Positions 21,571 through 26,881 of a stretch of DNA of 64,000 nt are shown piece by piece (the first letter of the stretch is position 1; each line of letters opens with the position of its first letter). The position numbers and the translations under genes were made by a program. The stretch is taken from IMG/VR virus record IMGVR_UViG_3300032295_003840, positions 102,913 through 166,912 of that record; one strand, given 5' to 3'. The notes under the pieces were generated by a model, which ran no database searches, had not been told where the DNA came from, and saw only the letters and a program-made list of their open reading frames with translations. The DNA is from a virus. Taxonomy: Duplodnaviria > Caudoviricetes.

Positions 21571-22023
21571 ATGTATACTCGCCAGACCTACAAAGGACGT
21601 TATCGCGTCATCAATGCCAGCAAATATGTTGGCAATCCCACACAGGTTGTTTATCGCAGTCTGTGGGAACTAAAGTTCATGAAGTGGTGCGACAACAATT
21701 CCGCTGTGTTGGAATGGGGTAGCGAAGAGATCATTATACCTTATTTATCGCCTGTGGACCAGAGAATCCATAGATATTTCGTGGATTTCTATGTCAAAAT
21801 ACGCAGTCAGGATGGCAAAGAACAACGCTATCTCATAGAGATCAAACCCGCCAAGTTTGTTCGACAGCCTGAAAAGCCCAAGCGCATGACGCCGCGGTTC
21901 ATCGATGAAGTTCGTACCTGGGGTATCAACCAGAGCAAATGGAAGTCAGCCACAGAGTTCTGTGAAAGTCGGGGCTGGCGCTTCATGATACTTACAGAAA
22001 ACGATTTGAATTTAGATAAATAA
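21571..22023 (+). CDS. gp4: Head completion nuclease gp4 (TnsA-like fold)
   Basis: KYVGNP..VYRSLWELKFMKWCD..WGSEE..PY.SPVD..HRYFVDF, EIKP, NQSKW. Confidence 0.95.
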   Translation: MYTRQTYKGRYRVINASKYVGNPTQVVYRSLWELKFMKWCDNNSAVLEWGSEEIIIPYLSPVDQRIHRYFVDFYVKIRSQDGKEQRYLIEIKPAKFVRQPEKPKRMTPRFIDEVRTWGINQSKWKSATEFCESRGWRFMILTENDLNLDK

Positions 22024-22609: not shown

Positions 22610-23434
22610 ATGGCAACAAGCAGCAACAGAATTTTTTCAAATGTCAGCCCAAATCCAGTAAATAGCGACGGCACACGCGAGGGCTATGTGTTGATGCCCA
22701 AGGCCAAGTATAAACTTGACGACATACTGGCCGAAGTTGGCGGTCGTGGCATGGCCAAGGCCAATCGTTTCGAAGTGTTTATTACTGCGCCACCGTGTTT
22801 ATATGACTATACTGTCAATGAAACCATAAGCCAACAAAACACTGGCGGCAGATATCGAACACAGAACATGATCAACCATGATGGTGTGGCCAAACGACTC
22901 AGTGTATTCTGTGAAAGCGCCAGTCTACCACCCACCAGAATTATTACTACACGACAGCAGATTTTTGGACCGCCCAGTTTCCATCCCATAGGCGCAGACT
23001 ACGGTGGTGACAACCTTAGCCTTACCTTTGCTCTGGATAAATGGTACACCATGAAAGAGTTCTTTGATATCTGGGTAGACAGCATTGTGGGAAGAAACAA
23101 TGGTCTGGTAAGCTATTCCTCAGATTATCTTTCACAGGGCATGACCATTTCACAACTGGACGAAGAAGATCGAACACATTATACCGCAGTATTTGAAGAT
23201 GTGTTTCCCATAGCTGTGAACCCCATACAACTGGACAGCAGCATGAGCAACACTGTAAGTAAAATGTCGGTAACCTTCTGTTATCGTCGTTGGAGAAATA
23301 TCAGCATGACTGTCAATGATAGACCAGTAACACAACGCGCTGAAACGGTCCGTACTGGTTTTAATGATCGCAGACAGCCTTCTAATAAAATCGGAGCTGT
23401 TGCGGGTTCAGGTTACAAATTTCCTGGACTTTGA
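22610..23434 (+). CDS. gp54: Baseplate tail-tube initiator gp54 / tube-fold protein
   Basis: GMAKANRFEV, CESASLP, FFDIWVDSI, ISQLD, DVFP, VTFCYRRW; synteny gp4-gp2-gp54-gp26. Confidence 0.75.
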   Translation: MATSSNRIFSNVSPNPVNSDGTREGYVLMPKAKYKLDDILAEVGGRGMAKANRFEVFITAPPCLYDYTVNETISQQNTGGRYRTQNMINHDGVAKRLSVFCESASLPPTRIITTRQQIFGPPSFHPIGADYGGDNLSLTFALDKWYTMKEFFDIWVDSIVGRNNGLVSYSSDYLSQGMTISQLDEEDRTHYTAVFEDVFPIAVNPIQLDSSMSNTVSKMSVTFCYRRWRNISMTVNDRPVTQRAETVRTGFNDRRQPSNKIGAVAGSGYKFPGL

Positions 23435-23451: not shown

Positions 23452-24147
23452 ATGTCTTTACCATTATTTACTACACCCAAGCACAGAGTTCGTCTGCCCA
23501 GCAATGGAGCCGATGTTGAGTTTCGTCCATTCCTAGTCAAGGAACAGAAACTGTTGCTCATGGCTACCAATGGCAGTCCTGAACAGCAGGCACATGCACT
23601 CAACGAAGTTATCAATGCCTGCACCTTTGGCAAGGTCAATGCGCAGACACTACCAGCCTATGACGCAGAATTTTTGTTTTTAAATATTCGTGCACAGAGT
23701 GTAGGAGAAACTGTGAATGTGGTCATGACCTGCAGCTGTGAAGCCAAGCAGGATGCCAAGCTCGATGTCACTGCCATCAAGGTAGACAAGTCGGAACGAC
23801 ATCGCGACATCATTGAAGTTGACAAAAATCTCAGCATACAGATGCGCTATCCTACTCTGCTAGAACTACAGGGCATTGACGGCAGCAACGATGTAGACAA
23901 CATCATTGGGCTGATTGCCGGCAGCATAGACAGCATCTGGGAAGGCGAAGAAAAATTCGATGCCCGAGATTATAGCAACGCAGATCTGGTAGAGTTTGTA
24001 GAAAATCTCAACCCAGCTACGCTGGAAAAACTAGAAGAGTTCTTTGCCACCATGCCCGTGCTGCGTCATACCATGGACTGGGACTGCAAAGAATGCGGAA
24101 AACACAACACTGTTGTCATGGAGGGCATGAACAGTTTTTTCGCCTAG
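23452..24147 (+). CDS. gp26: Baseplate hub assembly chaperone gp26
   Basis: MSLP, FRPFLVKEQKLLLMA, EFLFLNIRAQSVGE, FFATMP, CKECG, ends GMNSFFA; AAGGAG RBS. Confidence 0.93.
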   Translation: MSLPLFTTPKHRVRLPSNGADVEFRPFLVKEQKLLLMATNGSPEQQAHALNEVINACTFGKVNAQTLPAYDAEFLFLNIRAQSVGETVNVVMTCSCEAKQDAKLDVTAIKVDKSERHRDIIEVDKNLSIQMRYPTLLELQGIDGSNDVDNIIGLIAGSIDSIWEGEEKFDARDYSNADLVEFVENLNPATLEKLEEFFATMPVLRHTMDWDCKECGKHNTVVMEGMNSFFA

Positions 24148-24332
24148 TCCTTTCTCATGAAAGTTTGTTTGGTTATTATCAGACAAATTTTAATTTAATG
24201 CAGTACCATAAGTACAGTTTGTCTGAATTGGAAGATATGTTGCCATGGGAAAGGGAAATTTATATCATGTTGTTGGTAAAACACCTAGAAGAAGAGAATC
24301 AACGTTTACAACAACAGCAAGGAGGCCGATGA
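24135..24332 (+). CDS. gp51: Baseplate hub assembly protein gp51-like; first non-overlapping ATG at 24198, possibly reached by -1 frameshift from gp26
   Basis: LSHESL..YYQTNFNLMQYHKYSLSELEDMLPWEREIYIMLL matches gp51-like proteins; the similarity appears to start upstream of the ATG at 24198, close to T-TTT-TTC (24135-24141). Confidence 0.85.
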   Translation, partial: FFRLVLSHESLFGYYQTNFNLMQYHKYSLSELEDMLPWEREIYIMLLVKHLEEENQRLQQQQGGR

Positions 24333-24667
24333 TGGCAACAGCAGGAACTAGCAAAGAAGATTGGATGCAGAATAAATGGCGTCCAGCCATGGGATGGATG
24401 TACATGATCTGCTGTCTGGCAGACTTCGTAATTTTCCCAATCATGTTTACCATTGTACAATTCTGGGAAACTCAGGCGGCCAACGACGCATTCCGTCAGT
24501 GGATGCCCATCACTCTGCAGAATGGCGGGTTCTTCCACATCGCCATGGGTGGTGTTCTGGGTGTGGCAGCTTTTGGTCGTACCAAGGAAAAGCTGGCCAC
24601 CACCGAAGCACAAAGCAAGAACAACAACGATGACGACGACAATCGCGTCTATACACCCAAAGAGTAA
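24329..24667 (+). CDS. Putative holin (3TM/GTA-type holin family)
   Basis: KWRPAMGW motif, hydrophobic segments, LGVAAFGRTKEK; AAGGAGG at 24319-24325 precedes ATGATG (start 24329 or 24332). Confidence 0.75.
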   Translation: MMATAGTSKEDWMQNKWRPAMGWMYMICCLADFVIFPIMFTIVQFWETQAANDAFRQWMPITLQNGGFFHIAMGGVLGVAAFGRTKEKLATTEAQSKNNNDDDDNRVYTPKE

Positions 24668-24670
24668 ACC

Positions 24671-26881
24671 ATGGCCAAGAAATCCGCACCCCTGTCACTA
24701 GAAGAACTTCTGGAAGGCCAGAAGCAAATGCTGACGGCCAGCAATCTCACCGAGGAACAGCGCAAGCGAGCCGAGGATCAGATTGCCAAGCTGGAAGAAC
24801 TGCGTGCTGCTACAACCAAAACGCAGGATATACAGCAGGAGGTGCTGGATCAAAGTCGAGTTATGACCAAAGCCAAGGGTGACTCTAAAAATGTTACCCT
24901 TGGCGATGTGCGCAACGAACTCAAAGAACTACGCAAAGACATCAAGGCCGATCCAAATCGACGGCCCTTGCCACGACCCAAATCAGACGACGTCATCGAT
25001 GTAGATGTCAAAGAGGTCAGCGGCAAAAAGGACAACAAAGAACGCATTCAGAAGCTCACCGACATTGGTGCCACCTTGGGTGAGAAAGCCGAGCTCTATC
25101 AGAAGGGCGCTGGCAAAGAAACAACCGTAGCCAAGAACACTGAAACATTCCAAAGATTCGTGGCCGAGACGCAGAAAAAAGACGAGCTGCTCAAAGATGC
25201 CACAGACGACCAAATCAAGTTATTTGAACGTCTGGAAGATACACTGATTAAATTGCGTGACTCTGACGCCAAGGACAGCGCAGAGCTGCGTAAGGAGCTG
25301 GCCAAGATAGCTGGCGAGCTAGAAACTACCGAGGATACTGCTGCCAAGAAGTCTGTGAGTGGTGTGCTGGAAAATGCACGCAATCGTGCGCGCAGCGGTG
25401 CGCGAGGCGATTCTGGTACCCTGGGTGATGCCTGGAGTGTGCTGACTGGCAAACAAAAGGTGTTAAAAGAAGGCTATGAATTTGATCCTCGTCTAAAGGG
25501 CGATGGTGTTCGTCGTACAACAGAAAATGAATTTGGTAAAAAAGGCGAGATACCAAAGAAGGGCGAAGTTTTCAGCATGGGCCGTGTGGCTGGTGCAGCC
25601 AAGATAGCTGGCAACTTCCTACGTGGCAAAGTCGAAGACTACAATGCCACAAATGCCAGCAACGCTGGCAGCAATTTCTTGGACCGTACTTTTGGTGGTA
25701 ACCGTCTAGAAGAAGATCGAGCTCGTCTAGGCGCACGCGCCGAGGCTCTGATCAACAATCGTGGAACATCACCACGAGCTCAGGTAATGCCCATGGCCAC
25801 GCCCGCAGGCCGAGGCGGCAGCGCTGGCACCATGAACATCACGGCTACATCGGTCAATGTTCGTGGCCCTATTAAACTAACTGGCTCACAGCAGGGATCC
25901 GGTTGGTCAGCTGGCAACGCTGGTGCCAATGCTGGCAAAGACTGGCCTCCTAAATCCACGGCCATGGTTGCTGCAGCACCTGCGGCTGCCACAGCCGCAG
26001 TCGCACCCAAGGAAGAAGGTCCAGGACTGGGATCCACGCTGCTGGATCTGGGCGGAGATTTGCTGAGTCGTGGCAAGGGGCTGGGTGGTCGTGTTGCTGG
26101 CGCGGGCAAAGGCATACTGAATGCCGGTAAAAATCTGCTGGGCAAAGTTCCAGGTGGCATGCTCAAAGGCGGCATAGCTGGCATAGCTGGTCTGGGACTA
26201 AGCTATGGCGGTGACAAGTTAAAAGAAGCTGGTTACGAAAAAACTGGTGCTGCTCTGGATGTAACAGGACAGGCCGCGAGCTGGGGTGGCACTGGTGCCA
26301 TGCTTGGATCGATGATTGCACCCGGTGTTGGTACTGCCATAGGTGCTGGCGTGGGCGCTGTGGCTGGCGGTGCCTATGGACTGTATAAAAACTGGGGCAG
26401 CTTGTTTGGTGGCAAGAAGTCTGAAAACGGTCAGGCCACAGTCACACCACAAAGCAACGCAGCACAACCCGCGGTGGCCAATCCCAGCGCGGCCACCAAG
26501 GCTACCATGATAGCCAATGAACCTGTTGTTCCAGGGCAAGCTCTGTCTGAAAAACAGATGGCTACCATTGGCATGTCCAAGTCCATGGGCAACAGTTATT
26601 CAGCCGATGTAGAAAAACAATACCAACAACAATTGGCCAAATCGTCGGTCACACCTGCTGCTCCCACCGGTACAGCAAACAAGAATGTTACCATAGAGAA
26701 TCTGAGCAAGAACAATGCCGCGGCCAAGGAAGGCAACAACAAGCCCATAGTCATCAACAATTCCCAGCCCGCTCCTGCGGCGCCAGCACCAGCACCCCAT
26801 GTCATGATGCCACGCGGTCAGGTACGCAGTTCTGAAAGTGCCATGGAGCGTTACAGCGCACGCAACGCGCACTTCTACTAA
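24671..26881 (+). CDS. Tape-measure/gp29-like tail protein (736 aa)
   Basis: N-terminal coiled coil, Gly/Ala-rich hydrophobic central repeats (GAMLGSMIAPGVGTAIGAGVGAVAGG), C-terminal PIVINNS; follows gp26/gp51. Confidence 0.55.
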   Translation: MAKKSAPLSLEELLEGQKQMLTASNLTEEQRKRAEDQIAKLEELRAATTKTQDIQQEVLDQSRVMTKAKGDSKNVTLGDVRNELKELRKDIKADPNRRPLPRPKSDDVIDVDVKEVSGKKDNKERIQKLTDIGATLGEKAELYQKGAGKETTVAKNTETFQRFVAETQKKDELLKDATDDQIKLFERLEDTLIKLRDSDAKDSAELRKELAKIAGELETTEDTAAKKSVSGVLENARNRARSGARGDSGTLGDAWSVLTGKQKVLKEGYEFDPRLKGDGVRRTTENEFGKKGEIPKKGEVFSMGRVAGAAKIAGNFLRGKVEDYNATNASNAGSNFLDRTFGGNRLEEDRARLGARAEALINNRGTSPRAQVMPMATPAGRGGSAGTMNITATSVNVRGPIKLTGSQQGSGWSAGNAGANAGKDWPPKSTAMVAAAPAAATAAVAPKEEGPGLGSTLLDLGGDLLSRGKGLGGRVAGAGKGILNAGKNLLGKVPGGMLKGGIAGIAGLGLSYGGDKLKEAGYEKTGAALDVTGQAASWGGTGAMLGSMIAPGVGTAIGAGVGAVAGGAYGLYKNWGSLFGGKKSENGQATVTPQSNAAQPAVANPSAATKATMIANEPVVPGQALSEKQMATIGMSKSMGNSYSADVEKQYQQQLAKSSVTPAAPTGTANKNVTIENLSKNNAAAKEGNNKPIVINNSQPAPAAPAPAPHVMMPRGQVRSSESAMERYSARNAHFY

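Follow-up and report, generated by a model that had tools for sequence, protein, structure and literature searches.

A predicted programmed -1 frameshift joins gp26 to a gp51-like domain in an uncultured T4-like lake phage

The gp26-gp51 locus

The window analysed here is a whole stretch of 64,000 nucleotides (nt) from an uncultured T4-like lake phage (IMGVR_UViG_3300032295_003840, positions 102,913-166,912), and our subject is the point at which its gp26 gene runs into a gp51-like reading frame. A first-pass annotation of this DNA had proposed that a programmed -1 frameshift fuses the two frames, so that one locus would supply a tail assembly chaperone (TAC) in both a short and a long form. 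Three features lie at the centre of this proposal, with TAC-N and TAC-NC denoting the predicted short and long products.

23452..24147, + strand: gp26 open reading frame (ORF), zero frame, short product (TAC-N) of 231 residues, stop TAG 24145-24147
24135..24141, + strand: slippery heptamer T_TTT_TTC in X_XXY_YYZ phase, its TTT and TTC being zero-frame codons
24141..24332, + strand: -1 frame continuation encoding a gp51-like C domain, 63 codons, stop TGA 24330-24332

Read directly, the 3' end of the gp26 ORF is AAC AGT TTT TTC GCC TAG, and the heptamer that the first-pass annotation had placed here is indeed present and in the correct phase. An open -1 frame extends from 24093 to 24332, reading FFRLVLSHESLFGYYQTNFNLMQYHKYSL... 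after the slip site, and the +1 frame at the same place is closed after three codons. Joining gp26 residues 1-230 to the 63-residue -1 segment gives a predicted fusion of 293 residues with the junction ...NSFF-RLVLSHESL..., in agreement with the pair of 231 and roughly 293 residues that had been anticipated. The doubts that the annotation had raised about the two available start codons were also justified: ATG 24198, the first -1-frame ATG after the slip site, has no Shine-Dalgarno (SD) sequence, and ATG 24093 would add 14 out-of-frame gp26 residues, none of them conserved.

An in-phase T run ends gp26 in every relative sampled

We compared this junction across two sets of relatives. Set 1 was built from 80 viral contigs encoding gp26 relatives and nine cultured phages (P-SSM4, S-WAM2, S-CAM1, S-SRM01, HTVC008M, Cr30, Vibrio F86, phiM7 and S-CRM01), giving 89 usable loci and 87 unique junctions; the gp26 of one contig is 74% identical to that of the window and those of the remainder are 33-39% identical, a divergence at which silent sites are saturated. 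Set 2, of cyanophage type, comprised 81 relatives retrieved with the database proteins P0064 and P0054 and contributed 67 unique junctions. The first-pass annotation had suggested looking in homologues for a conserved TTTTTT(C/T) in the -1 phase, and T_TTT_TTN was found in the same phase in all 154 of the 154 unique junctions (87 + 67, representing 170 related loci). At all 89 usable loci of set 1 the 3' end of gp26 reads NNT TTT TTN with a stop zero to two codons on, and the -1 frame stays open for a further 55-67 codons. Both the run and its -1 phase are kept in every sampled relative, cyanophages and Pelagibacter, Caulobacter, Vibrio and Sinorhizobium phages among them, the in-phase run being present in HTVC008M, Cr30, Vibrio F86, phiM7 and S-CRM01 as well. 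Its length is 6-8 T, mostly 6, with 6 in the window, and six T's (T13-T18) never vary in the ungapped alignment (A1).

The codon usage within the run is equally constrained. The first Phe codon is TTT in every set 1 junction, compared with 75% (698/931) of the other Phe codons in the same ORFs, and by our own arithmetic the probability of this invariance would be ~1e-11 if the junctions were independent. In the codon before the run the last base is always T, whatever the residue (AGT or TCT for Ser, AAT for Asn, GAT for Asp, ACT for Thr). At the seventh position of the heptamer any base can stand (C 46, A 19, T 18 and G 4 in set 1), giving Phe or Leu in the zero frame, and the -1 reading remains an invariant Phe-Phe despite it. 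Judged from these alignments, the retention of the in-phase T run across relatives is far beyond chance.

The -1 segment is conserved from the slip site onwards

Conservation in the -1 frame begins at the heptamer itself, with FF followed by L at +5, S at +6, H at +7, L at +10, N at +12, YY at +13/14 and NF at +17/18, and the first common Met of the segment lies only at +20/21. The earlier suggestion that gp51-like sequence starts about 20 codons before ATG 24198 is thus well matched by the relatives. Between the gp26 stop and this Met, column entropy is 0.95, 0.69 and 1.35 at -1-frame codon positions 1, 2 and 3, a pattern which indicates coding sequence in the -1 frame. Start codons are scarce in this region: 53 of the 87 set 1 junctions lack ATG, GTG and TTG alike in the -1 frame as far as codon +6, an ATG upstream of the heptamer occurs in only 6/87, a -1 stop lies directly upstream of it in 5/87, and upstream of the site the relatives keep the -1 frame open for just 0-28 codons. 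Because start codons are missing, neither independent initiation nor reinitiation appears able to give a free gp51 in most of the window's set.

An SD-like element precedes the heptamer

We identified three candidate stimulatory elements around the slip site.

24120..24125, + strand: SD-like GGAGGG, candidate upstream stimulator, 9 nt before the heptamer
24150..24163, + strand: weak 5-bp hairpin CUUUC-ucau-GAAAG, possible local stimulator, 8 nt past the heptamer
24160..24191, + strand: 14-bp hairpin, lineage-specific, 18 nt past the heptamer, minimum free energy -12.7 kcal/mol, z -2.47

The GGAGG of the first element sits 9-10 nt upstream of the heptamer and derives from a conserved Glu-Gly; its spacing matches that of the dnaX stimulator reportedly described by Larsen et al. 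in 1994, and its distance from every gp51 start codon is too great for it to act as a gp51 ribosome-binding site. Its duplex energy with the anti-SD sequence is -9.8 kcal/mol in the window, and the means are -7.2 (set 1) and -8.3 kcal/mol (set 2) against -1.2 for background windows from the same ORFs, of which 2.8% (set 1) and 0.4% (set 2) reach the family median. The conserved Glu is encoded by GAG in 47/70 (set 1) and 57/66 (set 2) junctions, compared with 23% and 31% GAG elsewhere in the ORFs. This bias of GAG over GAA, replicated in two independent locus sets, makes the element appear to be under selection, and it is probably a translational rather than a transcriptional stimulator.

Neither hairpin proved to be a feature of the family. 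For the stem at 24150-24163, extended to eight pairs, 61% of cells show pairing compared with 59% after shuffling, and for that at 24160-24191 the figure is 49%, equal to the shuffled value. We accordingly rejected a downstream stimulatory hairpin as a family feature, both stems pairing at shuffled-level frequency, and the 24160-24191 hairpin is probably not part of the frameshift signal. The zero-frame stop one codon past the heptamer may itself contribute to slipping.

T4-type gp51 carries the same domain on a gp26-like body

The gp26 ORF matches the Pfam family PF12322 (T4_baseplate) at 1.8e-62, residues 9-231 aligning to profile positions 2-219 of 219, and the PHROG baseplate hub family phrog_150 at 1.6e-63. 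The -1 ORF matches the gp51 family phrog_634, 'baseplate hub assembly catalyst', at 5.8e-29 and also the last 55 positions, the C-terminus, of the phrog_150 profile. Searches with the -1 segment returned 982 cluster representatives at E<=1e-3, and tblastn with the -1 product returned 716 phage records, the hosts or groups being cyanophages, Pelagibacter, Methylophilales, Caulobacter, Vibrio, Rhizobium and Sinorhizobium phages and Klebsiella Straboviridae; the match to the gp51 of the last is 38% identical over 50 residues (E 4e-3).

We examined the T4 arrangement on Klebsiella phage KP179, in which genes 26 (209 residues) and 51 (252 residues) are separate and divergently transcribed. Both of their products span PF12322 end to end (1e-59 and 3.3e-52), and a profile of 87 predicted fusions aligns to residues 122-251 of KP179 gp51, ungapped over the junction, at E 1e-14. 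In the same alignment KP179 gp26 ends three residues past the FF. The T4-type proteins are therefore homologous to those considered here, with gp51 consisting of a gp26-like body followed by the C domain that the window encodes in its -1 frame. The gene layout differs: KP179 has two divergently transcribed paralogues, its gene 26 has no T6 run (GAA TTC TTT AAG) and the -1 frame there is closed, whereas the window carries one PF12322 gene with a -1 extension in place of the two-gene arrangement. Judged by homology, T4-type gp51 is the long form and T4-type gp26 the short form, held as separate paralogous genes.

The C domain is the better conserved part of the predicted fusion, with a mean column identity of 63% against 48% for the gp26 body and, among relatives, an identity to the window of 50-70% against 33-39%. 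Because the C domain is so much better conserved than the body, the comparison suggests that it binds a highly conserved partner.

The N domain of gp26 resembles solved chaperones

An AlphaFold2 model of gp26 (predicted local distance difference test, pLDDT, 88; predicted template modelling score, pTM, 0.82) was aligned to 48,161 PDB representative chains. The first three ranks were taken by 3fgx (Z 7.6), 2ob9 (Z 7.3) and 3klu (Z 6.5), all below Z 8, a range in which matches can reflect only a common arrangement, and the next match stood at 4.9. These alignments cover residues 1-93 of the model, with 84-85 residues aligned at a root-mean-square deviation of 3.8-3.9. The three structures, 2OB9 (HK97 gp13), 3KLU (YqbN) and 3FGX (Rbstp2171), are phage tail assembly chaperones (PMC9603447). 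Foldseek of the same model against the PDB gave no match at E<=0.001, with 2ob9 at rank 36 and a probability of 0.18, and a sequence search of the PDB with gp26 and a C-domain profile found nothing significant; the matches to HIV gp41 in that search (E >= 0.06) were set aside as chance helical matches. Despite the moderate Z scores, the occupation of ranks 1-3 by the only three solved chaperones is hard to ascribe to chance, and the N domain of gp26 is predicted from the model to have a TAC-like fold.

The remainder of gp26, residues ~85-230, weakly matches zinc-ribbon proteins (ZitP, LysW and the DnaJ zinc-finger region; Z 3.1-3.5), and the sequence carries CxC and CxxC motifs, making a Cys4 zinc ribbon in the C-terminal part of gp26 probable. 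The C domain is modelled as three helices (pLDDT 87) and gave no structural match with Foldseek against the PDB.

Neighbouring genes and an RNA-library contig from a close relative

Three further genes flank the locus.

22610..23434, + strand: tail-tube-like gene, 274 residues, phrog_45 'tail tube' 1.6e-28, directly upstream of gp26
24329..24667, + strand: gene for a small protein with three transmembrane segments (3-TM), PF11351 GTA_holin_3TM 28.6 bits (cut-off 24.8), phrog_3427 holin 9.5e-8
24671..26881, + strand: tape-measure-like gene, 736 residues, by position and composition only

Syntenic genes of 22610-23434 are annotated as tail tube in HTVC008M, Vibrio F86, phiM7 and S-SRM01. The 3-TM gene begins with an ATG that shares bases with the TGA closing the -1 ORF and is preceded by AGGAGG inside the last -1 ORF codons; a small gene stands at the same place in HTVC008M, Cr30 and phiM7. 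Candidate roles for the 3-TM product are a holin or a tail or tape-measure accessory. The 736-residue protein has no Pfam or PHROG family match except to glycine zippers, and BLASTP against the annotated tape measure protein (TMP) of HTVC008M was not significant. Its feature matches to Atlas tape-measure clusters, at 0.84-0.88, fall below 0.9 and serve as leads only, and its syntenic genes are annotated as tape measure in HTVC008M and Cr30. We term it TMP-like by position, synteny and these weak Atlas leads. The first-pass annotation had placed such a gene just downstream of gp51: a TMP-like gene does follow, although the small 3-TM gene intervenes. The order of tube-like gene, gp26/51, small 3-TM gene and TMP-like gene is the same in HTVC008M and Cr30. 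Further upstream, at 21571-22023, lies a gp4-like head completion gene (phrog_218, 1.1e-59) whose product also matches PF08722, the Tn7 TnsA-like endonuclease N-terminal domain (4.3e-21).

A freshwater metatranscriptome (run X1) contains a 190-nt contig that spans 24076-24265 at ~98% identity and a depth of 12.6, with a T6 run and no indel; it speaks to presence in an RNA library only, and not to minor edited forms, transcript ends or habitat. The contig carries the substitutions 24110 C>A and 24114 T>C, and a 79-residue database protein, P0002, differs from the -1 ORF of the window at the residues corresponding to these two sites. Because protein and contig differ from the window at corresponding sites, a close strain variant seems to circulate.

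Weighing a ribosomal frameshift against other routes

We consider it very probable, from the comparative evidence, that gp26-gp51 is made by a programmed -1 ribosomal frameshift. Under this model most ribosomes would end at TAG 24145 and release the 231-residue TAC-N. A minority would slip back by one nucleotide at U_UUU_UUC with tRNA-Phe on UUU in the P site and on UUC in the A site, both tRNAs re-pairing on UUU UUU, and would then translate the 63 further -1 codons to TGA 24330, yielding the 293-residue TAC-NC. The rate of slipping would probably be raised by the SD-like GGAGG, by the zero-frame stop one codon on and perhaps by the weak local hairpin. TAC-N and TAC-NC would together be the pair of chaperones that serves the tape measure and the tail tube, the counterpart of lambda G/GT. 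The layout of the locus, its conservation, the kinship with T4-type gp26 and gp51 and the TAC-like fold of the modelled N domain are what the analysis shows; we infer the slipping itself, its ribosomal nature, its efficiency and the binding partners of each domain. The first-pass view of gp26 and gp26-gp51 as a short and long chaperone pair gains support from the phase of the run, the paralogy with T4-type gp51, the fold of the N domain and the gene order.

Several points weigh against this interpretation. The frameshift product at this locus is predicted from sequence. No conserved downstream stimulatory RNA structure was found across the family, RNAalifold returning no consensus and no pairs. 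The sequences compared are related and are not independent samples, such that the codon statistics overstate significance, and the fold matches to solved chaperones have the low Z scores given above. In addition, the cyanophage-type set has an ATG just after the gp26 stop in 55 of its 67 junctions. The first-pass annotation had named variable phase and independent starts among homologues as signs against a fusion; the phase was never variable, and ATG starts after the stop are common in this one set. Databases annotate gp51 from that ATG. The cyanophage-type loci nevertheless retain the in-phase T6 run, and they may also make a free C domain alongside the frameshift product.

The same 293-residue fusion could arise by transcriptional slippage, in which RNA polymerase adds an extra U at the T6 run and a minority of U7 mRNA encodes the protein in one frame. 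The signal is a homopolymer of 6-8 T, this route and the -1 frameshift would yield one and the same protein, which comparative protein data cannot tell apart by origin, and protein databases hold a few in-frame fused forms (P0054, P0064 and P0004). We nonetheless regard this route as improbable. Most runs have only 6 T, and known bacterial slippage sites, according to what Baranov et al. are said to have reported in 2005, usually have 9 or more. The run invariably starts on the third codon position, where tandem re-pairing of tRNAs needs it to be, and the conserved SD-like element with its dnaX-type spacing and GAG bias fits only a ribosomal mechanism. The unedited T6 of the metatranscriptome contig points the same way, weakly, since contigs hide rare variants. 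The in-frame database forms were rejected as natural fusions of the marine and freshwater group: all 81 relatives retrieved with P0064 and P0054 need a -1 shift, P0064 departs from relatives 93% identical to it only in a local change of frame that resembles an indel error, and the three proteins, predicted from metagenome contigs, are probably products of homopolymer indel errors. P0001, the sole match in a search for longer homologues, was likewise discarded as a natural fusion, beginning at an internal Met and running on downstream.

Two other routes dispense with slipping altogether. In one there is no fusion, and gp51 is a small protein of its own whose start is ATG 24198, ATG 24093 or some non-canonical codon, with the T run merely encoding a conserved Phe-Phe. 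Many relatives are annotated in just this way, with a separate 'baseplate hub assembly catalyst' of 45-62 residues, and the ATG that follows the gp26 stop in most cyanophage-type junctions suits such a reading. It is, however, very improbable: the first 20 residues are conserved with no preceding start codon in 53/87 junctions, ATG 24198 has no SD, ATG 24093 is not conserved (with the few upstream ATGs and the upstream -1 stops noted above), and T4-type gp51 has the same domain fused to a gp26-like body. Encoding Phe-Phe also fails to explain the invariant TTT, the preceding wobble T and the tolerated zero-frame change of Phe to Leu. In the other route, ribosomes ending at TAG 24145 would restart nearby in the -1 frame by termination-reinitiation coupling. 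Stop-start overlaps (TAATG, TGATG) do occur in Cr30, Vibrio F86, phiM7 and S-CRM01, but the window and most of set 1 have no start codon near the stop, and reinitiation leaves unexplained both the in-phase T6 run and the conserved -1-frame FF-R/L upstream of the stop, such that we give it only the slightest chance.

Within the preferred reading of a ribosomal frameshift, we tentatively propose, at somewhat less than even odds, that a dnaX-type internal SD, kept in place by synonymous GAG selection at the conserved Glu-Gly, stimulates the gp26 frameshift of T4-like phages other than T4 without a conserved downstream structure, and that lineages differ in how far they depend on slipping. The slip would be the only route to the C domain in the freshwater lineage of the window, whereas the AUG after the stop in cyanophages could also give a free C domain.

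Relation to known systems and significance

Xu, Hendrix and Duda reportedly described in 2004 a -1 frameshift that is conserved among tail assembly chaperone genes, with lambda gpG/gpGT and P2 E/E+E' as examples. The locus resembles lambda G/GT in having two overlapping ORFs, here downstream of a tube-like and upstream of a TMP-like gene, a heptamer close to where the first ORF ends, a second ORF with no start of its own, a predicted TAC fold in the N domain and a major short product beside a minor long one, the products here being predicted from sequence. It differs in that gp26 is about twice the typical TAC-N size and has extra domains, including the probable Cys4 zinc ribbon, which lambda-type chaperones lack; in its heptamer (U_UUU_UUC as opposed to G_GGA_AAG); in the small membrane-protein gene between the chaperone and the TMP-like gene; and in the lack of sequence similarity between gp26/gp51 and G/GT. 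Compared with E. coli dnaX (A_AAA_AAG), the locus shares an internal SD-like sequence ~10 nt 5' of the heptamer and a zero-frame stop close behind it, but the family has no conserved downstream stem-loop, the heptamer is different, and the frameshift would lengthen the product here whereas it truncates that of dnaX.

The TACs of T4-like phages have reportedly been identified as gp26 (TAC-N) and gp51 (TAC-NC) by Vladimirov, Gautam and Davidson (Virology 2022;566:9-15, doi 10.1016/j.virol.2021.11.003), and according to two papers that cite this work it describes slippery poly-T runs within the TAC-N genes of T4-like phages, some of which instead carry one short and one long fused gene. As represented there, these chaperones belong to the same gene family (PF12322) and form the same short and long pair as in the window. 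The recasting of the 'hub assembly' genes put forward in the first-pass annotation is thus supported as regards chaperone identity and is not new, the recasting of gp26 and gp51 as tail assembly chaperones having already been published in 2022. The SD-like stimulator with its codon bias, the lack of any downstream structure kept across the family and the number of loci surveyed may be additions to that work as its citing papers present it.

The RefSeq records of S-WAM2 (1516-1695) and S-CAM1 (1515-1700) have no gene annotated over the conserved gp51-like -1 ORF. In other public records gp51 appears as a stand-alone 'baseplate hub assembly catalyst' of 45-80 residues. Because public records split or omit the long form, annotation pipelines should join the gp26 and gp51 ORFs. 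The window is one more instance of a published concept, to which it adds some detail on the signal. On this reading, the general rule for long-tailed phages, by which one locus yields both a short and a long chaperone, would extend to T4-like phages, and T4 genes 26 and 51 would be explained as the same chaperone pair split into two genes.

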